DNA of 64,000 nucleotides, from the sequence record NC_028927.1. One strand, written 5' to 3'. Below are positions 3,363 through 33,577 of this stretch, in pieces. Within the stretch, counting starts at the first letter, position 1. Each line of letters starts with the position of its first letter. A program made the translations under genes and the position numbers. This DNA is from Escherichia phage slur02. The notes beneath the pieces were generated by a model that had not been told where the DNA came from, did not search any database, and was given only the letters and a program-made list of their open reading frames with translations.

Positions 3363-3787
3363 TGCTTCTGATCCCTGAAACTCATGAATTAGTTCTCGAG
3401 AATGTCGAAGCACTTATTCCTGAAGCACAGGGTCGCTTTGACGAATTGTCTTCTGCTTTAAATAAAGACGATATAAATACAATTGTCGAGAATATGCTTG
3501 ATGATGAAACTGATTTAGCGGTTGCATTAGCTTCTATTAATGAAAATATGCCGCTAAATGAATTTATCGTTAAACATGTTTCCGCCCGTGGTGAAATTAC
3601 ACGTACCAAAGATCGCAAAACGCGTGAACGTAATGCATTTCAAACCACCGGGCTGTCTAAAGCAAAACGTAGACAAATTGCTCGTAAAGCTACCAAAACG
3701 AAGATTGCCAATCCAGCAGGTCAATCTCGTGCTCAGCGTAAGCGTAAAAAAGCTCTTAAACGCCGTAAAGCATTAGGATTAAGCTAA
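3362..3787 (+). CDS. 68: prohead core protein gp68
   Basis: 141 aa with a basic C-terminus, between 67 and 21. Confidence 0.75.
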
Positions 3788-4425
3788 TGAATGAACCCCA
3801 ATTACTAATTGAAACTTGGGGTCAACCTGGCGAAATTATTGATGGCGTACCAATGCTTGAATCTCATGATGGAAAAGACTTAGGTTTAAAACCAGGTTTA
3901 TACATCGAAGGAATATTCATGCAAGCGGAAGTCGTCAATAGAAATAAACGTCTTTATCCAAAACGCATATTAGAAAAAGCGGTAAAAGACTATATTAATG
4001 AGCAAGTTTTAACTAAACAAGCTCTCGGAGAATTAAATCATCCTCCACGCGCTAATGTTGACCCGATGCAAGCCGCTATCATTATAGAAGATATGTGGTG
4101 GAAAGGAAATGACGTATACGGACGAGCTCGTGTTATTGAAGGTGACCATGGTCCTGGAGATAAATTAGCAGCTAATATTCGTGCCGGATGGATTCCAGGA
4201 GTTTCTTCTCGTGGATTAGGTTCATTGACTGACACAAATAAAGGTTATCGTATCGTAAACGAAGGATTCAAATTAACTGTAGGTGTTGATGCTGTATGGG
4301 GTCCAAGTGCTCCAGATGCATGGGTAACTCCTAAGGAAATTACCGAATCACAGACGGCGGAAGCCGATACAAGTGCCGATGACGCCTATATGGCTCTCGC
4401 AGAGGCCATGAAAAAAGCGTTATAA
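3787..4425 (+). CDS. 21: prohead core protease gp21
   Basis: 212 aa; start overlaps gp68 stop; position as in T4. Confidence 0.9.
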   Translation: MNEPQLLIETWGQPGEIIDGVPMLESHDGKDLGLKPGLYIEGIFMQAEVVNRNKRLYPKRILEKAVKDYINEQVLTKQALGELNHPPRANVDPMQAAIIIEDMWWKGNDVYGRARVIEGDHGPGDKLAANIRAGWIPGVSSRGLGSLTDTNKGYRIVNEGFKLTVGVDAVWGPSAPDAWVTPKEITESQTAEADTSADDAYMALAEAMKKAL

Positions 4426-22997: not shown

Positions 22998-23027
22998 ACT
23001 ATAACACAACATGAGGAACTTGTAAAC
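22998..23027 (-). promoter_or_regulatory. early sigma70-type promoter (-35 GTTTAC, 18-nt spacer, extended -10 TGTTATAGT)
   Basis: Read on the minus strand; -35 overlaps the stop of the alt-like paralog; leader carries GAGGA before the ATG at 22966. Confidence 0.5.
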
Positions 23028-25084
23028 TACATTTTGAACTTTTTAGACATTCCGTTAATGTTAACCAAAGAAGCTAAGATTTGAGAAACTTCGTTTTCCT
23101 CTTCTTTTGATTCTTCTACAAGGAATTGATTAAATCCAGCCATTGGACGAACTTCACCAGTTTCCATTAAATGGTCGCCATCATATACTGATTCTTCTAA
23201 TTGTTCAGAAGGAGGAACGATTGTACCTTCGATTAGATACTTGTTATAAGCAGTTTCTTTCATAAAGTACGTACTTACTTTATTAATCTTCAGTAAAATT
23301 CCACGCGGTAGAATAACTTCAGCTTCTGATGGAAATCCTGTTAAATGACCTGGAACGATAACTTTGATTCGCTCAGCTCCTTTAATTACCATACCCACGC
23401 TAGTTTCAGCATTTTCATTAGCGTATGTAGAATGACTACCCATATGCATCAAATCTTCTGCATCAACAGAACCTTCTCCTTCGCCAGAAAATACTGCGCC
23501 GGAATCATCTAGAGCCATATAGTTTTTACCATGCTCACCGAAGATATTTGGTTTAAGCGATGTAGATACGAAGTTCTTGAAATAGAACATTTTGTTTTCA
23601 ATGTTATGACGCAAAGTTTTAAAGGTAACTTCTTGTCCACGATAAAGCGTAGTTCCTGGAGGAAGAACTGAACCTTTAGCGAATGCAGAATCTAACGTCT
23701 CGATGTGCTTAATAGCTCGTTCCATATATTCTTCACGGGTAGAATCTGGTTTACCCAAAAGGAACGAGTTCATTTCAACATATGAATCTGCACAATAATC
23801 TTCAATTACATCAGATTCAGCTTGAGTTAATCCTTTTGGAGTTACTTCAGTACTTGCATATTCATATGCCTGGGCAGCAGATTCATTAATCAATTTATAA
23901 ATGCCATTCATGACAAATTGAATAATAGCTGTCTTTTCATCTGGCGTGGCTTTAGAACCTTTAACCAAATCATTGATAATTTTCTTAATAACATCAAAGC
24001 TATTAGAAATATTAATATCAGCAAGATCACTTAAAATTTTATCAGTTTTATAATCAAAGAATTCTTTATTCTTTAAATATTCTTGAGAACCTTGATATGT
24101 TATATCGCTCTGCAACTTGATGGATGGATCACGTAAACGTGCATGGGCTAATGCAATATGATTTCGGAAGTTTTCTAGTTCATAATCGCTAGATTTAAAA
24201 CGAGAAGCACTCCTCATACCACCGATAGCTCCTTTGCTGAAGTTTGAACCAATCTGAATAACGCCAGAGTTCATTGGTCCTTCTGCTTTATATACCGGAA
24301 CTTTAGATTCAAACTCTTGATATTTCTTGGCAGCGAAGCTATCACCCTGAAGTGAAGCATCAACAGTAGAATATTGAGCTTGTGCTGCTAATCGACGACT
24401 AATTTTAGTTTTCTGAATAACAGCTTGGTCAGTACGTTTATCATTTTCTAAAGCAATAGAAGCAGCAACAGCGACAGCTTTAGGAACAGCATTACCTGTT
24501 TTAACGTCTACATAAACATCACCAACCTTTGATTCAACTTTTGTGAATAACTCAGTTGAAATAGGAGGTACGCCTGGAATGTCTTCTAAATTGGCATTTT
24601 TACGGTAAACCATAATATATGCATACTTTTTATCATAGTCCCAGATTTCCTTTAAAAGAACATATCGACCTGCTCCTTTAGTACGTACTAAACGGTCAGC
24701 AATAACTTGCATTTGACGAGCAGCGCCATTTGTTTTACTCTTTAGTACGCGGAATAGGCATGCGTCGATTTTATACTGCTTCATTGTTTGAAGAGCAGTA
24801 TCAAAAACAGCACTAATGACGCCAATTGGATTTCCACCCAAGTTTCTAAGCTTAACCAGCGATAATTTCTCGTTGACACCTATCATTACGATATGCATCA
24901 TTTTATCGCCCGGCTTAACGTTTTTATTCGTATCACCGCCAGAGGTGTATGTACAAAATCTAAATCCAGGAAGCACGCTTTCTTCGCCGGCTTGAATAGC
25001 AAAAATTTGTGGTATTTTATGCTTAGGATTTAAGTTAACAACCGGCGCCGAAGCGCCGTCAAATAATTCTGTAATAAGTTCCAT
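23027..25084 (-). CDS. Alt-like ADP-ribosyltransferase paralog (685 aa)
   Basis: N-terminal 230 aa closely similar to the adjacent alt ORF; C-terminal half has R / S-T-S / E-x-E ADP-ribosyltransferase motifs (YRGQ, FVSTSL, SEAEVILP). Confidence 0.85.
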   Translation of the reverse strand: MELITELFDGASAPVVNLNPKHKIPQIFAIQAGEESVLPGFRFCTYTSGGDTNKNVKPGDKMMHIVMIGVNEKLSLVKLRNLGGNPIGVISAVFDTALQTMKQYKIDACLFRVLKSKTNGAARQMQVIADRLVRTKGAGRYVLLKEIWDYDKKYAYIMVYRKNANLEDIPGVPPISTELFTKVESKVGDVYVDVKTGNAVPKAVAVAASIALENDKRTDQAVIQKTKISRRLAAQAQYSTVDASLQGDSFAAKKYQEFESKVPVYKAEGPMNSGVIQIGSNFSKGAIGGMRSASRFKSSDYELENFRNHIALAHARLRDPSIKLQSDITYQGSQEYLKNKEFFDYKTDKILSDLADINISNSFDVIKKIINDLVKGSKATPDEKTAIIQFVMNGIYKLINESAAQAYEYASTEVTPKGLTQAESDVIEDYCADSYVEMNSFLLGKPDSTREEYMERAIKHIETLDSAFAKGSVLPPGTTLYRGQEVTFKTLRHNIENKMFYFKNFVSTSLKPNIFGEHGKNYMALDDSGAVFSGEGEGSVDAEDLMHMGSHSTYANENAETSVGMVIKGAERIKVIVPGHLTGFPSEAEVILPRGILLKINKVSTYFMKETAYNKYLIEGTIVPPSEQLEESVYDGDHLMETGEVRPMAGFNQFLVEESKEEENEVSQILASLVNINGMSKKFKM

Positions 25085-25087
25085 GAT

Positions 25088-27184
25088 TTATCCTTGAACG
25101 AACTTGTAAGGCATGTTTGTAATATCTATGCAAGACGCAATAATTCCAAGAGATGATTCTACTTTCTGTTTAACATTTGATGAAACAAATGATGCAAAGT
25201 CAACTCTGTCTTCTACTTCAATATCACCTGTCATTGCAACTACTTCGCCGGTTTCCATTAGATGGTCACCGTCATAAATTACCGATTCGGTGAGTTCTTC
25301 TGTGGTCATAACTTCAGCTTGAATAAGTTTTGTATTATTAGATGTTGTTCCGTCATTATTAGAAGCATCAGTTATTTTATTAACTTTAACCATCAATCCG
25401 CGCGGTAGAATAACTTCAGCTTCTGTTGCTATTCCGAGACTTCCTGGATATACAACATTAACTTTATGAGCTCCATCAATTGCCCATCCTATTTGAACTT
25501 TAACGTATTCAGGATTTTCTTTATACGCTCTTATTTCGTTTGGATTAATAGTTATTCCTTCTTCATTTTTATCAACTGTTAATTCATTGCGAGCTTCTGG
25601 TTCTAAAAGACCAATACCAGCATGTGTAATTCCAAAACGTCCAAAAATGATAGGAGTTAAAGAAGTAGATACAAAATTTCTGAAATAGAACACTTTATTT
25701 TTAACTAGCGCTTCGTATATAGGAGCAGTCATACTTTGAGCACGATAAACTGTAATGCCTTCCGGTATGCGGTCACCATTTTCAAAAGCTGAATCTAAAT
25801 TATTTATAGCAGATTCAATTTCTTTTTCACTCATTACATCATATCGTTCTGGATTGTAACGACCTAAAAGAAGATTATTGATGTCAGTATATCCTGAACC
25901 ACAATACTCTCTAATGCCGCGCTTTTGTGATGGAGTATATTTAGAACCATCACGGGCAATAGTAATATCAATCATTGGACCTGCACCAATTCCAGAAAAA
26001 CTATAAATCATTCTTTTGAGGAATTTAGTTTTTGCTGCGTTCCAGGAATTTTTAGTTATTTCTTCCCAGACTTCATCTGGTTGTCCTTTACGATTTTTAT
26101 TATGATTAGCAAGCCATTTATCTTTATAATCTTCAAAGAATTGATTTACAGCTGCTGCGTATTTCTCTAAACATTTTATTGAAGTAGTTGGTTCATTTTT
26201 AATTGCATTAAAAATTACTTCTTTAATTTTTTCTGAAACTTCACCGACTTGACTCATTGGAAAGAATTTATAATCATAGTGAAGTTCATCTGCCGTTCCT
26301 TCAGCAATAATTTTTGCTGCCTTAGTTTTAGAAGCTAATGAATTAATTCCAAGCTTCATTTCTTCTGCTTCGGGAATTAAAGGAGCGGTAGCAGGTTTAT
26401 TGAAATTAGCTGCGGTAGATTCATACTTCTGGAATAATTCACTTTCAAATCTAGAAGATTCCAATGACTGACTTTGCGCAATTGCTCTACGTGAAATTTT
26501 AACTTTAACGATTACAGCTTGGTCAGAACGTTTATCATTTTCTTGCGCAATAGATGCTGCAATTGCCTCATTTTTAGTTACTTGAGCTCCAGTATCTTTA
26601 TTGATATAAACATCACCGACCTTCGATTCAACTTTAGTAAAGAGCTCGGTACTAATTTCCGGAACCCCTGGAATGTCTTCTAGTGATACATTTTTGCGAT
26701 GTATAAGAATATATGCATACTTTTTATCGTAATCCCAGAGTTCCTTAAGAAGGACGTATCTGCCACCTGAACGACTACGGATAAGTCTATCAGCAATAAC
26801 TTGAATTTGTCGAGCTTGACCAGCGGTTTTAGACTTAAGAATACGGAGCATACAAGCATCAATTTTATATTGACGCATTGTTTGCATTGCAACAGTAAAA
26901 ACTGAATTGATATAATTAATTGGGCTTGGACCAAGACCTTTCAATTTAGCAATTGAACCTTTAGCAGTTAATGTAAAAGGAACAATATGCATCATTTTAT
27001 CGCCCATTTTTAAATCGCGATTAGTATCACCTCCAGATGTATAGGTACATAAACGAAAGCCTGGTTGTTCAATTGCATCATCAACATGAACTGAAAAAAT
27101 TTGTGGTATTTTCTTCTTTGGGTTTAAGTTTGTAATCGGAAGAGTAGTATCTTCGTCAAATAATTCTGTAATGAGTTCCATCAT
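25088..27184 (-). CDS. alt: Alt, capsid-packaged ADP-ribosyltransferase (698 aa)
   Basis: Alt-type N-terminus MELITELFDEDTTLP...; ADP-ribosyltransferase motifs YRAQ, FVSTSL, EAEVILP; adjacent to gene 30 as in T4. Confidence 0.85.
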   Translation of the reverse strand: MMELITELFDEDTTLPITNLNPKKKIPQIFSVHVDDAIEQPGFRLCTYTSGGDTNRDLKMGDKMMHIVPFTLTAKGSIAKLKGLGPSPINYINSVFTVAMQTMRQYKIDACMLRILKSKTAGQARQIQVIADRLIRSRSGGRYVLLKELWDYDKKYAYILIHRKNVSLEDIPGVPEISTELFTKVESKVGDVYINKDTGAQVTKNEAIAASIAQENDKRSDQAVIVKVKISRRAIAQSQSLESSRFESELFQKYESTAANFNKPATAPLIPEAEEMKLGINSLASKTKAAKIIAEGTADELHYDYKFFPMSQVGEVSEKIKEVIFNAIKNEPTTSIKCLEKYAAAVNQFFEDYKDKWLANHNKNRKGQPDEVWEEITKNSWNAAKTKFLKRMIYSFSGIGAGPMIDITIARDGSKYTPSQKRGIREYCGSGYTDINNLLLGRYNPERYDVMSEKEIESAINNLDSAFENGDRIPEGITVYRAQSMTAPIYEALVKNKVFYFRNFVSTSLTPIIFGRFGITHAGIGLLEPEARNELTVDKNEEGITINPNEIRAYKENPEYVKVQIGWAIDGAHKVNVVYPGSLGIATEAEVILPRGLMVKVNKITDASNNDGTTSNNTKLIQAEVMTTEELTESVIYDGDHLMETGEVVAMTGDIEVEDRVDFASFVSSNVKQKVESSLGIIASCIDITNMPYKFVQG

Positions 27185-27215
27185 ATCCTCTCTAGTGTTT
27201 ATTCTATTTATAAAA

Positions 27216-27233
27216 TTAAAGGCCCGAAGGCCT
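27216..27233 (-). terminator. terminator between the small ORF after gene 30 and alt
   Basis: AGGCC-UUCG-GGCCU hairpin followed by a U-rich tract on the minus strand. Confidence 0.5.
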
Positions 27234-27422
27234 TTAATAATCTATTGGTAAGAGAGTACGATATATTTCAAACTTTGGACCTTTTTCATAAGCATCAAAA
27301 GTTTCTGTGAATTTATTATAAGCATATGCATCTATAAATTCAATCATGATTTGTGATACAGAAGTAGAAACATCTCCACCTTCTTTTTGAGCCACGACAA
27401 TTGTTTCTAAGTAAGCTTTCAT
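27234..27422 (-). CDS. hypothetical small protein
   Basis: 62 aa ORF overlapping gene 30 stop; terminator hairpin downstream. Confidence 0.5.
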   Translation of the reverse strand: MKAYLETIVVAQKEGGDVSTSVSQIMIEFIDAYAYNKFTETFDAYEKGPKFEIYRTLLPIDY

Positions 27423-28882
27423 AAACCAGTTACCTCATGAAAATCACCAAATACATCTTCGAATGTATTAGCTTTAGTTTTATCTTCACGTAAACGAATC
27501 GCAATCGGAAGAAATAATTTAACGTAATCAGTGCGGCCATCAGATTTTAACCAACCGTTGCATTCGCACTCTAGAATTTTTCCAATATAATAATTTTGGT
27601 TTTCCATAATGCGAGTACGGTCAAGTTCATGCGATTTTACACCGGCTTTATCTTTTAAGCCTGAACCAGCATTTACTTTAATTTTTCCACACTCTGACTC
27701 AAGAATAAATCCACCTGCTTTAGTAGGGTCTTTACGGTGAGGATAAATTCCTACAATTTTTAAATCAACATCAATTACTTCTTTAAATTTATAGAGATTT
27801 TTTGAACGAGCATTTTCCCATAATCCATCGATATTTTTGAGAATAATACCTTCAAGACCTTGGTCAATATACTTTTTATAAATTACCTTAGCTTCATCTA
27901 GGTTATTTACTACTTGGTTTTCAATTAAAATTACTTTATCATATCCTGATGTCATTTGTTCTAATTTAGAAAAACGTACATCATATTTTAAACGAAATGC
28001 TGGAAGACCGTATATTTCTACCAACGGAACATAATCCCAGACCTGAAACTTCATGCATTGAGCTTCTTTTTCTGAAATAGTTCCCTTTAAAGATTTATTA
28101 GCGATTCCATTAGAAGTAGTACGTGATTCAGCTACTTCAGCAAACTCTTTAGCTTTACTAATTTCAGGATAAGCATCAAAAAGAAAATCTAGGCCTTCTG
28201 GCTCCTTTTTAACTTGCTCATGGTATACCAATTCGCCATCAATTAACACGCCTTCTGGATGAATCTGGCGGGCTTCAGCGGTCATTTTGATTAATTCTTC
28301 CTTAAGAAGATCTAATCCTAGATACTCATTACCGGCTCGTGATAAAAGACGAACATCATCTAATTCATCACCTCTGACTTCGGCAAAGCACCGAGCCCCA
28401 TCAGCTTTTAACTGGGCAAAGGCTGGAAATTTGATATTCTTATTAATGCCTTTTTCATCATAAGAACTTGCCAGCATTTGAGGTTGTTCAGGAATTAAAC
28501 CTGGCCAAACTTTGTTTGCAATAGATACTGAAGCACCACATTCAAGGTCTCGCATCATCACTCGACGCAAAACTTCAACATCATCTTTTTTACCATCGGT
28601 GATATATCCAGATAATTCCTCAATTGCCGCATTTCCGGTCAATTTCCGAGTAGCTAACGTGAATTCAATGAAGTCAAGCATATCGGTAAGAGTCAACATT
28701 CCAAAACTCTGGGTAGCAATACCAGATTTAGGCCATTTCTTGATATAATACTGCAACCCACGAGAATAAGTCAGACGATATACTCGTTTAAGCAATTCAT
28801 TATCTTTATTCTTTTCAAGAATTGCTTGCTTCTGCTTAGTTGAACCAATAGATGCTATTTCGTTCAGAATTTTAAGAATCAT
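27419..28882 (-). CDS. 30: ATP-dependent DNA ligase gp30
   Basis: 487 aa; adenylation motif KADGAR; T4 length. Confidence 0.95.
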   Translation of the reverse strand: MILKILNEIASIGSTKQKQAILEKNKDNELLKRVYRLTYSRGLQYYIKKWPKSGIATQSFGMLTLTDMLDFIEFTLATRKLTGNAAIEELSGYITDGKKDDVEVLRRVMMRDLECGASVSIANKVWPGLIPEQPQMLASSYDEKGINKNIKFPAFAQLKADGARCFAEVRGDELDDVRLLSRAGNEYLGLDLLKEELIKMTAEARQIHPEGVLIDGELVYHEQVKKEPEGLDFLFDAYPEISKAKEFAEVAESRTTSNGIANKSLKGTISEKEAQCMKFQVWDYVPLVEIYGLPAFRLKYDVRFSKLEQMTSGYDKVILIENQVVNNLDEAKVIYKKYIDQGLEGIILKNIDGLWENARSKNLYKFKEVIDVDLKIVGIYPHRKDPTKAGGFILESECGKIKVNAGSGLKDKAGVKSHELDRTRIMENQNYYIGKILECECNGWLKSDGRTDYVKLFLPIAIRLREDKTKANTFEDVFGDFHEVTGL

Positions 28883-29148
28883 TGTTCATCCTTTAGAGTT
28901 TGGTTTACAGCTCTATTATAAATCAATTCATCATTAAGCTCAGTCAAAGACCTATGGTACGTGGTTCTAACTTTATTTCCTTGCATCCAGTGTTTGACGT
29001 AAATGAAACCTTGCTCTACACATTTTTTAAAAATTCGTTCGTCTTTTTGAGCTCGGAATTTTGGATTGCATCTAAAAAATTGATTTACGTGACCGTAATC
29101 ACGTGTAGTATTACCTTCATTTTCATAAATAGTGTGAACAACAAACAT
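28879..29148 (-). CDS. hypothetical protein (30.1-like)
   Basis: 89 aa; ATGA overlap with gene 30 start. Confidence 0.6.
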   Translation of the reverse strand: MFVVHTIYENEGNTTRDYGHVNQFFRCNPKFRAQKDERIFKKCVEQGFIYVKHWMQGNKVRTTYHRSLTELNDELIYNRAVNQTLKDEQ

Positions 29149-29984
29149 TAGAATGCTCCTTGGAAAATATTATCACCACTAGTAGGTCTATTATACAAAT
29201 ACTCTATGCCACCAGGTTTAATATAGTTCCATGTCTGAAACGGATGTGTCTGATATGGATGATATGGATTATAAGGATTAAATCCAGGAGTTCTCCAGGT
29301 AGTGTTCCAACGAAAAGAATCATTTTTAATCATCTTTTCAATTACATCTTTTATAGCTTTTTCACTATCAAAACTTTCTTTATTTTCCTTCGGTGAAAAA
29401 AGCTTATTCTCTACATCGTTCCATGTATAAACTCGCTGAGCGGTTTTTGGAATACTGTCACGTTCCCCTCGAGCCATCCAATAAACAGGAACATTTAATA
29501 TTTCACTCGCGTGATCGCAGTGGTGAGCGAGATCGTCAATATAACAAATTACGTTATATTTCTCTTTTGCCTTTTTGAACAACTCTTCTTTTGAAGAATC
29601 ATGACCACACATCATTACTTCTGAGAAGGCACCAGGAAAAAGAGCATTCAAATTAAATTGACGATTCAGCAGAGCGTCAATAGAATCACCCAGTGCTGTA
29701 ACAGCTACAAAATTATAATCTTCTTTTAATTTGTTAATTACACACAGGGCATCTTTATACGGAGACAAGTAACGAATAAAATCTGAACGATTGTATTTTT
29801 CAATTAACTTGACGCCAAGTTCTTCATCACAATTAAAAAGTTTACCTGGAGAAATAAATTTCTCATCTTGGATCATTTTTAAAATATGTTCCAACGGAAG
29901 ATTATATTTCTGAGCAAAATAAGGAAGGCCTGATTGCCAGCTTAAACATACTCCATCAATATCAGTTAAAATAGTAGGCTTCAT
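29148..29984 (-). CDS. hypothetical protein (30.2-like)
   Basis: 278 aa; conserved T-even ORF position. Confidence 0.65.
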   Translation of the reverse strand: MKPTILTDIDGVCLSWQSGLPYFAQKYNLPLEHILKMIQDEKFISPGKLFNCDEELGVKLIEKYNRSDFIRYLSPYKDALCVINKLKEDYNFVAVTALGDSIDALLNRQFNLNALFPGAFSEVMMCGHDSSKEELFKKAKEKYNVICYIDDLAHHCDHASEILNVPVYWMARGERDSIPKTAQRVYTWNDVENKLFSPKENKESFDSEKAIKDVIEKMIKNDSFRWNTTWRTPGFNPYNPYHPYQTHPFQTWNYIKPGGIEYLYNRPTSGDNIFQGAF

Positions 29985-30445
29985 AGAGAGTCTCTTAATA
30001 GGTTTAACACATCAATAAATTCAGCTTCTGTTAGTATTGTATCATCTTTTGTTAGACCACTAGCCATGCTGTGCTTCAAAACTTTTCCTTTCGAGGCTTG
30101 TAATGCATCGCGAAAGCCCTTGTTTTGGATCGCTGCTTCAAAATATGCATTTGTGTATAATTCTTTCCACGCTGGGGAGTATCTTGAAAACGGAACTCCA
30201 AGCCAAAAGAGGGTCCCACGGTCCTGAGCTCTTGCATAAGACCTTCCAGCTTGTTGGGCGGCAAGACCGGATAACCAAAATATACGACGTTGTTGTTCAA
30301 CATTTTTCACCTTACACCCTTGGAGGAATCCTTCGAGACCTCCAAATTGGATACCATCCATAACAAAAGGCCATTGGGCGAAATTACTTAATGCACATGA
30401 TGGCCATCTAAAATTACTTCTTATCTCTAGCTCAAACATTTTCAA
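29981..30445 (-). CDS. hypothetical protein (30.3-like), possibly NADAR/YbiA family
   Basis: 154 aa; family assignment is from memory of the T4 30.3 annotation and is not verified by motif here. Confidence 0.6.
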   Translation of the reverse strand: MKMFELEIRSNFRWPSCALSNFAQWPFVMDGIQFGGLEGFLQGCKVKNVEQQRRIFWLSGLAAQQAGRSYARAQDRGTLFWLGVPFSRYSPAWKELYTNAYFEAAIQNKGFRDALQASKGKVLKHSMASGLTKDDTILTEAEFIDVLNLLRDSL

Positions 30446-30638
30446 TACTTATAATTTCAACATCAGCCCAATGACCATAGCAAGGAAGACGAAATTCAAC
30501 TGGCCAGTTAGGGTCCTTTTCTAATATAATAGACTTAACTTGTGGTTCTTCATGTTCATCGGTATACGGACCTTTATACGTTACTTTATATGTGACCTTA
30601 ATGTACTGAATTCCAAAAATCTTATTAATTATATTCAT
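30432..30638 (-). CDS. hypothetical small protein (30.x cluster)
   Basis: 68 aa ORF in the packed minus-strand array. Confidence 0.5.
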   Translation of the reverse strand: MNIINKIFGIQYIKVTYKVTYKGPYTDEHEEPQVKSIILEKDPNWPVEFRLPCYGHWADVEIISIENV

Positions 30639-30832
30639 ACTAATTCCTTTAATCCATAGATAGGAGATAATTCATCACCCATACGAAGGTCTTCATTTCC
30701 ATCTACCCAGAAAACAATATAAGCCTCTTTTATTTGAATACCACTCCATTTAAATGGAGGTAGAACCTTAGAAATTAATCCAGGTATACCAACTCCCTTT
30801 AATTCAACAGTTTGACCTAAAAAGAATTTCAT
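30635..30832 (-). CDS. hypothetical small protein (30.x cluster)
   Basis: 65 aa; ATGA-type coupling with neighbours. Confidence 0.5.
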   Translation of the reverse strand: MKFFLGQTVELKGVGIPGLISKVLPPFKWSGIQIKEAYIVFWVDGNEDLRMGDELSPIYGLKELV

Positions 30833-31119
30833 TAGAACCTCATCTGAAAACCGTGCGATTTAACATTACCGCCGCCAATATCAGAAATGTTAATTTCGCG
30901 CGCAATTGAAGGGTCAATGTCAATTTCACGATTGAGTTTAGTGATAGCTAAAGTATCGCGCCCATTTACTGTACGGAATTTTAAAGGACAAACCACATCA
31001 ACGTAGTTTTTAATCGATTCACTGGTAGGCTGCAAATGAGCAGGAAGGTCTTTAGGTGCCTTTGAGAAAACAACTTCACAGAAATTTTTGCGGGTGTCAA
31101 AATAAGTAGTCATAAACAT
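30832..31119 (-). CDS. hypothetical protein (30.x cluster)
   Basis: 95 aa; SD GAGGA upstream. Confidence 0.6.
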   Translation of the reverse strand: MFMTTYFDTRKNFCEVVFSKAPKDLPAHLQPTSESIKNYVDVVCPLKFRTVNGRDTLAITKLNREIDIDPSIAREINISDIGGGNVKSHGFQMRF

Positions 31120-31160
31120 AATATTTTCCTCAGTAAGGGGCTAAAGCCCCTCATTTTATT

Positions 31161-31538
31161 TTAAATATCAAATTCATTAAGAACTACATCAAAGATTGCT
31201 TCAAGATGCTCAGATTTGGCTTTGTTACTCAGAATATGACGAATCCAAGTTTTAACTAAGAGTTTACGATTAACGCCATTCCAGCAAGGATGAGTCCCTA
31301 AATCGCGTTGACGGAAATCATCATCCAGAGCGATTTTAAAGTTGGAACCTTCCATTGTGATTGAAACCGTGATACCGTTTTCAAATCGCATATAAACGTA
31401 ATTAGGAGTCATATACTGATCGATTTCGCATACTGATCCGTTTTGATGTTTCCAGAGGCAAATAGTATCAATAGAACCTGCAATACCATTAGAAACATAT
31501 TTACGTTCAAAGTTGATGTAGTTCATTTTATTCTCCAA
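31161..31538 (-). CDS. hypothetical protein (30.x cluster)
   Basis: 125 aa; early-type promoter upstream. Confidence 0.6.
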   Translation of the reverse strand: MENKMNYINFERKYVSNGIAGSIDTICLWKHQNGSVCEIDQYMTPNYVYMRFENGITVSITMEGSNFKIALDDDFRQRDLGTHPCWNGVNRKLLVKTWIRHILSNKAKSEHLEAIFDVVLNEFDI

Positions 31539-31562
31539 GATGTTTAATTGCGGTACAGGTAT

Positions 31563-31591
31563 ATAATATCATATCCTGTACCAAAGTAAAC
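31563..31591 (-). promoter_or_regulatory. early sigma70-type promoter
   Basis: Minus strand GTTTAC, 17 nt, TGATATTAT, ahead of the ORF starting at 31538. Confidence 0.45.
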
Positions 31592-31593
31592 AA

Positions 31594-31926
31594 TTATTTT
31601 ACTACTTTCCAATGCTGCATGTCAAGTTTACCAACTTTTTTCATCTTCTCAATTAAGCGTTCGGCACGTTGGCGAGCTGTAACATAATGCCATTCGCCTA
31701 ATTCATTTTGTTCAATTTTTCCAACGATTACTGTATTCAATTCATAAATCCAACCAGTAAAGAAATTATGAACTTGAATTGTAAAGGTGAAATCTGTTCC
31801 CATACCTTCTGTTGTTTCTACTTCAATAATATCACCTTCAACTGCCATTAAGAACCACATAGTTTCATCATATTTACCATTGAAGCATTTAGTTTTAACT
31901 GTAGCGTTCAGATTAATCGTTTTCAT
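31594..31926 (-). CDS. hypothetical protein (30.x cluster)
   Basis: 110 aa; early-type promoter upstream. Confidence 0.6.
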   Translation of the reverse strand: MKTINLNATVKTKCFNGKYDETMWFLMAVEGDIIEVETTEGMGTDFTFTIQVHNFFTGWIYELNTVIVGKIEQNELGEWHYVTARQRAERLIEKMKKVGKLDMQHWKVVK

Positions 31927-31953
31927 TTTATTCTCCTTTGTTTGTGTAAGATA

Positions 31954-31983
31954 ATACTATCACAAAGGAACCGTACTGTAAAC
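31954..31983 (-). promoter_or_regulatory. early sigma70-type promoter
   Basis: Minus strand GTTTAC, 18 nt, TGATAGTAT, ahead of the ORF starting at 31926. Confidence 0.45.
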
Positions 31984-32002
31984 AACTTTGTGCAATCTTT
32001 GG

Positions 32003-32031
32003 AAAATAAAAAAGGACTCCCGAAGGAGTCC
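32003..32031 (-). terminator. strong terminator downstream of the 30.9-like ORF
   Basis: GGACUCC-UUCG-GGAGUCC hairpin followed by UUUUUUAUUUU on the minus strand. Confidence 0.7.
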
Positions 32032-32036
32032 TCAAC

Positions 32037-32213
32037 TTATGCTTTCTGCTTACCAAAACGAGAAGCATCATCTCGAAGAACCGCACGTGCTCGGCGCATG
32101 ATCTTCTCAACAGTTTGATTGATACGAGAGTTCGACCCACGCTTGTAACCAGCGCGTTTAGAATCACCAACTTTCTTTTCAACTGCTTTCTTTGCTTTAG
32201 CTTGTTTTGCCAT
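32037..32213 (-). CDS. small basic protein (30.9-like)
   Basis: Likely start at MAKQAKAKK (58 aa); the track ORF 32037..32255 extends further 5'; strong terminator downstream. Confidence 0.5.
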   Translation of the reverse strand: MAKQAKAKKAVEKKVGDSKRAGYKRGSNSRINQTVEKIMRRARAVLRDDASRFGKQKA

Positions 32214-32226
32214 TATAAATTCTCTT

Positions 32227-32370
32227 TTAAATGAAAATGCAGGACTTATTGGCATTGCCTGCGCAAGCCCTCAAAGGGGTACTTAGGTTTTGAATATTTA
32301 CCGACAGGATAACCATAAACCTCGTCATCATACCACCAAGACTTACACAGATAACACTTTTCTGACGCAT
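32227..32370 (-). CDS. possible 47-aa Cys-containing small ORF
   Basis: Hand-translated MRQKSVICVSLGGMMTRFMVILSV...; below track threshold; weak RBS; ends 13 nt before the 30.9-like start. Confidence 0.3.
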   Translation of the reverse strand: MRQKSVICVSLGGMMTRFMVILSVNIQNLSTPLRACAGNANKSCIFI

Positions 32371-32501
32371 GATAGTAACATTCAAGAGGTACACCGTAAA
32401 ACTGCCGGGGTCTTAAAACTATAATGATTTGCGAATCATTAATCAGACAGTTCGACGGCTCCTCGATTTAGCTCACACTAAGGCAGTGAATCTCCAATAA
32501 A

Positions 32502-32750
32502 TTACTTCAATGTTACCACAAAGTGACGAACTGCTTTTCGTGCAGCAGAAGCCAGAGGCTTAGCATACTTAAGTTCATCTTTTTCCTGAAGCTCAGCAGC
32601 TAATGCAGTTTGAGCAGGATTCAGATGTTTGAAATAACGCAGGATTTCAAGAGCTTCGGCTTCAACATCAATAGATGCGCCATAGTTTTCGTGACCATTA
32701 TTCCATGCGTTTCGTTGCAGTTCAAGAGCGTGTTGTAATTGTTTAATCAT
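32502..32750 (-). CDS. rIII: rIII lysis inhibition accessory protein
   Basis: 82 aa (MIKQLQHALELQRNAWNNG...); position upstream of gene 31 as in T4. Confidence 0.8.
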   Translation of the reverse strand: MIKQLQHALELQRNAWNNGHENYGASIDVEAEALEILRYFKHLNPAQTALAAELQEKDELKYAKPLASAARKAVRHFVVTLK

Positions 32751-32876
32751 TTAAAAATTCTCGTTAGAGATTAAAACTCGGTAGTCACGTTCTTCTGAAT
32801 TTCATCTTCTTTCGACAGATCTCTCAGTTGTAGACTACCACATAGAATTGAAACTCAATTCATATTATTATTTATA

Positions 32877-33212
32877 TCACTTATAAAGACACGGAATAGC
32901 TTTATAGTGACAGGTAACAAATTTTTGTTTAATTTCTTTTGGCTGCTTAAGACCCAGAGCTACAAAAGGATGCGGAACATTTCGAATTTGACCAACTGGG
33001 AGAGAAGTCAAATCACCAACTTCGCAGAAACCTTCAGGAACATCAGGACCGACAGAGTGAATTACACACAGTTCAGGAACTTCACCTTGAACACGTTTAC
33101 CGATAATAAGTCCTGATTCTGTAACTTCTTCATCACCGGCTTGTGCAGGTTCAGAAACTAAAATAACATATTCACCGACAGCACGAATTGGTAGCTGTTG
33201 TACTTCAGACAT
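32877..33212 (-). CDS. 31: co-chaperonin gp31 (GroES-like)
   Basis: 111 aa ([21 protein letters not shown]...); T4 gp31 length and sequence pattern. Confidence 0.9.
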
Positions 33213-33268
33213 CGTTTTTCCTTTTTGTTAACAGATGAGTTAATAATAACAAATAATTCTTAAAGCAT

Positions 33269-33577
33269 TTATTTACCAATAAATTGAAGCAAATGCTCAA
33301 CTTTCATACCATTAACAGAAATCAATTTGTCAATAGAAAAACCTCGCCATGCACCGAGCTCAACATCAAATACTGGAATCATATCCGTAGATTCTTTCCG
33401 AGTAGATTCAGTCAATTTACCGGTTTGCATGGTTGGCATAAAGTCTGCATCACGAGTACCTTTCATAGTACGAATAGTACCATCAGACTTTTCAAAAACT
33501 ACGTTTGAAACACCCATGGACAGTTTAGTTTTCAAAATTTCACGAATTGCTACTTTCTGCTCAGTTGTCAGTTTCAT
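33269..33577 (-). CDS. hypothetical protein (31.1-like)
   Basis: 102 aa ORF. Confidence 0.6.
   Translation of the reverse strand: MKLTTEQKVAIREILKTKLSMGVSNVVFEKSDGTIRTMKGTRDADFMPTMQTGKLTESTRKESTDMIPVFDVELGAWRGFSIDKLISVNGMKVEHLLQFIGK

Follow-up and report, generated by a model that had tools for sequence, protein, structure and literature searches.

The window analysed here, a 64,000-nt stretch of the genome of Escherichia phage slur02 (NC_028927.1), contains a short minus-strand ORF in the same region as genes for Alt-type ADP-ribosyltransferases. A preliminary description, made from the letters alone, took it for a possible ADP-ribose-processing gene of the NADAR/YbiA type. Is this assignment right, and if so, what would such an enzyme erase: the ADP-ribose that a host toxin puts on phage DNA, or the one that the phage itself adds with its own transferases?

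The slur02 orthologue of T4 gene 30.3

The ORF is orthologous to gene 30.3 of T4, also named adfN (anti-DarT factor NADAR). The gene has already been characterised in T4, a close relative, and the finding is not a new one. The slur02 and T4 proteins align without gaps and are identical at 149 of 152 positions (98%), the exceptions being S2F, G55W and I125M, with no frameshift between the genes. All three substitutions sit in variable columns of an alignment of 89 full-length gp30.3 homologues, 35-92% identical to the slur02 protein, which we use throughout as the family alignment: column 125 is mostly I (41 sequences) or M (39), and the six commonest residues of column 55 are K, R, T, S, G and A, with W not among them. 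A Pfam scan returns PF08010 (Phage_30_3) over the whole model (1-138), scoring 233.9 bits where the cut-off is 36, with an E-value of 5.8e-70, and the protein also matches phrog_652. The genes follow one another as in T4: rIII/31 … 30.9-30.4, 30.3, 30.2, 30.1, DNA ligase (gene 30), alt.1 and alt. The DNA around adfN is 100% identical to that of Escherichia phages slur04 (Tequatrovirus), slur11 and slur13, and shows 97% identity with many other Tequatrovirus genomes. Homologues are widespread, since tblastn with slur02 gp30.3 finds 1,509 phage records (1,502 covering at least 80% of the query) from phages of Escherichia, Klebsiella, Aeromonas, Acinetobacter, Vibrio and other hosts; five of them are at least 99% identical to the slur02 protein.

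The limits of the gene deserve some attention. The minus-strand ORF opens with a TTG at 30445, has 154 codons and ends in the stop codon 29981..29983; these are the coordinates that the preliminary description had used. We prefer the ATG at 30439 as the likely start because the T4 annotation of 30.3 begins at the ATG and gives the same length, 152 aa. The coding sequence would then run from 29981 to 30439 (minus strand; 152 aa plus stop) and encode a NADAR domain reduced to its core, and the two extra codons, TTG AAA (30440..30445, minus strand), are probably untranslated. Upstream lies gene 30.4 (30432..30638, minus strand, 68 aa, phrog_2042), with a stop that this ATG overlaps; its last codons, …GAA AAT GTT TGA, are read ATGTTTGA, an arrangement that suggests translational coupling. 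At the other end, the stop of adfN shares an ATGA with the start of gene 30.2 (29148..29984, minus strand, 278 aa, phrog_420), which has a HAD-like DxDGV motif at its N-terminus and, to judge from this ATGA overlap, is translationally coupled to adfN.

The pattern of substitutions indicates that the frame is under purifying selection, because synonymous changes outnumber non-synonymous ones against both phages compared. The 16 nucleotide differences between slur02 and T4 amount to 13 synonymous and three non-synonymous codon changes, and the comparison with Shigella phage SP18 gives 48 and 24, respectively. With its PF08010 match, this signature of selection and homologues in about 1,500 phage records, the ORF proposed at 29981-30445 is borne out as a real one. 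The GC content of adfN (41.4%, against 36.2% for the window) ranks at the 93.5th percentile among windows of 459 nt, an excess too weak as an argument for recent horizontal transfer, which we discarded. A pattern scan for promoters and terminators found 26, against 20.2 expected in shuffled sequence; counts being at background, without enrichment, the scan yields no reliable transcription unit. An Rfam search of 27000..33500 found no RNA family.

Other frames overlap adfN. The T4 annotation contains 30.3', a 75-aa frame lying out of frame within 30.3 (30076..30303, minus strand, in slur02), which we rejected as a functional unit because it evolves like non-coding sequence. All six nucleotide differences from T4 in the overlap are non-synonymous in the 30.3' frame, whereas five of the six are silent in that of 30.3. 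The frame is still open in slur02; in Shigella phage SP18 its start is lost and it carries an internal stop. 30.3' is unlikely to be a genuine gene. Nothing speaks for the two plus-strand ORFs within adfN (30066..30227 and 30103..30363), which are mechanical.

The genomic setting of the gene varies with distance. Among the distant T4-like phages compared, only an Acinetobacter phage retains the T4 arrangement. The homologue lies within a tRNA gene cluster in Klebsiella phage KP17 (3001-3450 of the compared locus) and in Aeromonas phage avDM5 (3010-3459 of the compared locus), a setting that may point to an RNA-related role of those homologues, and it stands beside NT5C-type nucleotidase and exonuclease genes in Vibrio phage vB_ValM_R10Z. 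We also came across a 38%-identical PF08010 homologue on a 308-kb ENA contig (6001-6468 of the compared locus) that resembles a jumbo phage, with many small unannotated ORFs and with NUDIX and Thg1 genes a few kilobases from the homologue, which has no DarT-like neighbour on that contig. The same protein is found on a 424-kb contig as well.

A diverged branch of the NADAR superfamily

PF08010 is a diverged branch of the NADAR superfamily. The preliminary description had made its assignment depend on a significant NADAR/YbiA hit in a profile search. Taken literally, as a single-sequence scan, this search goes against it, since Pfam gives PF08010 for slur02 gp30.3 and no match to PF08719 (NADAR) even at E <= 1, whereas the profile of the family and hhalign do reach YbiA. 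Other single-sequence searches were equally insufficient: phmmer with slur02 gp30.3 against the PDB gave no NADAR match, the two matches at E ~1 being noise, and NCBIfam gave nothing. The link therefore emerges only with profiles or structure and, for lack of a direct PF08719 match, membership is to be understood at the level of the superfamily. When the profile of the 89-member family is run against the PDB, its sole match is E. coli YbiA (2B3W; E 0.006), with an alignment that pairs LSNF…F..DG…EGFLQ..K of the family with FSNF…I..DG…EHYFQ..K of YbiA. Individually, 13 of the 89 members match PF08719 at E <= 0.01; the best of them has an E-value of 1.5e-7 and 32.3 bits, under the cut-off of 35.1. 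The reverse search agrees, YbiA matching PF08010 at E 0.004. With hhalign, the comparison of the family with the YbiA sequence of E. coli K-12 has a probability of 93.9% (E 1.6e-7), and a relaxed alignment spanning the whole protein one of 94.8% (E 5e-8). The AlphaFold model of slur02 gp30.3 (pLDDT 93.1, pTM 0.88) has the fold of YbiA, a helical core flanked by small beta-sheets. Profile-profile comparison and fold thus uphold the NADAR/YbiA type proposed for the 30.3-like ORF, and the literature agrees (PMC11543638, PMC11125620, PMC11825919).

The residues that carry the activity are conserved. P13, A16, L17, S18, N19, F20, F25, E36, G37, F38, Q40, Q50, A61, H123, L136 and T137 are found in 89/89 sequences of the family, the SNF motif being invariant across it, and K43 in 87/89. 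Two of these residues are catalytic: Glu36 (codon GAA, 30332..30334, minus strand), which contacts ADP-ribose and aligns with E48 of YbiA, and Lys43 (codon AAG, 30311..30313, minus strand), which coordinates phosphate and aligns with K55. They correspond to E43/K50 of PnNADAR and to E88/K95 of the E. coli C7 NADAR, and their replacement by alanine (E36A, K43A) impairs T4 AdfN (PMC11825919). The third landmark is His123 (codon CAC, 30071..30073, minus strand), in the last beta-strand (120-123 in the model). A histidine at this place is the hallmark of phage-type NADARs, where it replaces the last-strand Glu of the YbiA type or the Asp of the DarG1 type (PMC11125620, PMC11543638). By sequence, H123 aligns with either E125 or H126 in the 'VEHT' of YbiA, the exact register being ambiguous. 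The C-terminal alpha-helix of the model (residues 138-151; 29987..30028, minus strand) is intact. Full activity needs this helix: the RB69 allele has lost it with its final 15 residues and is defective (PMC11825919).

These features place slur02 gp30.3 among the known systems. T4 AdfN, also of PF08010, has the same E36, K43, H123, C-terminal helix and neighbouring genes (PMC11825919), and slur02 differs from it only by the three substitutions given above. E. coli YbiA, of PF08719, is about 20% identical to slur02 gp30.3; its Glu125 stands in place of the invariant His of the phage family (VEHT against KHS in slur02), and it is a housekeeping protein, encoded on the chromosome beside dinG and rhlE. 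Slur02 gp30.3 lacks the last-strand Glu of the YbiA family proper. It also lacks the features of DarG1, the NADAR antitoxin of DarTG1 (BC4488 family; Geobacter lovleyi 8BAT, E. coli C7 NADAR), namely a last-strand Asp, where slur02 has His123, an N-terminal extension (219 residues in 8BAT, against the 152-aa core of slur02) and an adjacent DarT1. Nor can T4 AdfN stand in for DarG1 when cells are not infected (PMC11825919).

Which ADP-ribose would be removed

Work of 2024-2025 identified T4 gp30.3 as AdfN, a guanine-ADP-ribose DNA glycohydrolase (PMC11825919, PMC11125620). Suskiewicz/Schuller and colleagues found that NADARs hydrolyse the guanine-N2-ADP-ribose made by DarT1 or ScARP (PMC11543638). 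In vitro, T4 gp30.3 removes the ADP-ribose of guanosine and not that of thymidine (PMC11125620), and it is also active on ADP-ribosylated guanine in RNA (PMC12945103). Johannesman et al. [quoted passage not shown] AdfN does not bind DarT1; the purified protein strips ADP-ribose from DNA, and its E36A variant does not (PMC11825919). One detail of the published material concerns the construct, as the methods of PMC11125620 give the 'E. coli T4 phage NADAR (gp30.3)' as residues 1-208, against 152 aa for the T4 coding sequence; it may include residues of a tag or vector, or derive from another phage.

Given its orthology to this 98%-identical protein and its intact active site, slur02 gp30.3 is very probably AdfN, a NADAR-core enzyme that reverses the guanine adducts of DarT1 on phage DNA. 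Upon infection of a DarTG1 host, the DarT1 toxin would ADP-ribosylate guanine in the phage DNA and block its replication. AdfN would then hydrolyse the N-glycosidic bond that joins guanine to ADP-ribose. Lys43 would contact the phosphates, and Glu36 and His123 would flank the distal ribose; the unmodified DNA so restored would allow replication to proceed. Such an enzyme would be an orphan type IV antitoxin, acting on the product of the toxin without binding it. Slur02 gp30.3 is indeed an orphan, since there is no DarT1 gene next to adfN, where the neighbours are 30.4 and 30.2, and the Alt proteins belong to PF03496 and not to the DarT family. The earlier suggestion of a counter-measure to DarT-like toxins can thus be kept for DarT1, which targets guanine, as shown for T4 AdfN against DarTG1 (PMC11825919), and has to be dropped for DarT2, which targets thymine. 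T-even phages have another anti-DarT factor, AdfA (T4 61.2), that shares the target of AdfN, DarTG1; the proteins are unrelated and work differently, AdfA by binding the DarT1 toxin and AdfN as an enzyme on the modified DNA (PMC11825919).

The Alt transferases reported in the same region are there. Two full-length PF03496 ORFs lie in tandem just past the DNA ligase gene (23027..25084 and 25088..27184, both minus strand) and encode Alt-type ADP-ribosyltransferases of 685 and 698 aa. T4 has one alt and short duplicate remnants, alt.-1/alt.-2, whereas slur02 keeps the second copy intact and so has two full-length alt paralogues near adfN. T4 Alt modifies arginine in proteins.

The pairing of these writers with gp30.3 as eraser, which the preliminary description had put forward, is not supported. 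The two Alt-type genes are on the same strand as adfN and some 3-7 kb from it, and Iyer et al. noted that T4-like phages express their NADAR genes early, together with the ARTs (PMC9503650), so that gp30.3 could be imagined as part of a phage-internal pair, removing the ADP-ribose added by Alt (or by ModA/ModB). However, the substrates differ. Those shown for NADARs are guanine, and for some also cytosine, ADP-ribose in nucleic acid (PMC11543638, PMC12945103), base adducts unlike the protein arginine targeted by Alt. Also, the phenotype of the T4 adfN deletion is specific to DarTG1 (PMC11825919), and the closeness to alt reflects the usual T4 synteny and is not conserved in more distant T4-like phages, the homologues of KP17 and avDM5 being in tRNA clusters and that of R10Z next to exonuclease genes. 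We think that a pair of this kind has hardly any chance of being the explanation. The settings of homologues in other T4-like phages, within tRNA clusters or near NUDIX and Thg1 genes, are consistent with yet another substrate: gp30.3 could mainly degrade soluble ADP-ribose derivatives, such as immune signals or by-products of RNA repair, instead of DNA adducts, an idea put forward for phage NADARs ahead of the experiments (PMC9503650). This is highly improbable in view of direct evidence on T4 AdfN, which in vitro takes ADP-ribose off DNA and on which, in vivo, the defence against DarTG1 depends (PMC11825919, PMC11125620); a second role is not needed to explain the data. The chance that gp30.3 is a YbiA-like housekeeping N-glycosidase, clearing reactive intermediates of the riboflavin pathway, is practically nil: YbiA is its closest solved sequence relative and is annotated as an N-glycosidase, but gp30.3 has the phage-type His and not the Glu that defines the YbiA family (PMC11125620), it belongs to a separate Pfam family, and there are no riboflavin genes among the neighbours of adfN.

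If the AdfN reading is retained, the slur02 allele might still be inactive or weakened, for instance by G55W, in the manner of the RB69 allele. The three substitutions with respect to T4, the W in column 55 and the scarcity of near-identical records would fit such a decay. Against it, the frame is full-length with the C-terminal helix in place, the invariant residues are all kept, the substitutions fall in variable columns, and the synonymous excess indicates continued selection. A weakened allele is therefore very unlikely, and we infer that the slur02 allele (S2F, G55W, I125M) should be as active as that of T4.

gp30.2 and the phage context of AdfN

T4 AdfN is fully active only during infection by a T-even phage (PMC11825919); without infection it fails to neutralise DarT1, and phages other than T-even gain little from it (PMC11825919, PMC11125620). 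This failure outside T-even infection implies that the mechanism depends on the phage context. The gene that follows adfN could be relevant here. The N-terminus of gp30.2, MKPTILTDIDGV, can be read as motif I of the HAD phosphatases, its C-terminal tail is rich in Pro, Asn and Tyr, and phrog_420 is labelled 'hypothetical'. The orthologue of the Acinetobacter phage (50% identical; 3464-4123 of the compared locus) has weak PF00702/HAD and NT5C matches, and gp30.2 is likely to be an uncharacterised phosphatase or nucleotidase of the HAD family.

The two genes have similar distributions, with 1,509 records of T4-like phages carrying an adfN homologue and 1,451 a 30.2 homologue. They are not always adjacent: in avDM5 they are about 65 kb apart, and the neighbour of the distant homologue on the jumbo-phage-like contig is unrelated to gp30.2. 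We find it very unlikely that AdfN requires a partner encoded by T-even phages (perhaps the HAD-like gp30.2), or that it also erases guanine-ADP-ribose from RNA during infection. As an observation apart, in Vibrio phage vB_ValM_R10Z (3001-3952 of the compared locus) the NADAR homologue overlaps the start of a gene for an NT5C-family 5'(3')-deoxyribonucleotidase, a second case of a NADAR gene directly 5' of a gene for an enzyme of the HAD superfamily. The match between this enzyme and 30.2 is limited to a local one of 19 N-terminal residues, with 37% identity and an E-value of 0.012, spanning its D-x-D motif.

Recognising adfN has some practical value for annotation, as the gene still goes by 'hypothetical protein' or 'GP30.3' in public records. 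Beyond this, AdfN makes a textbook-style case of a phage orphan antitoxin that enzymatically undoes, on DNA, the modification imposed by a host defence. Carrying an intact adfN, slur02 is predicted to resist DarTG1, a prediction that bears on that of its host range.
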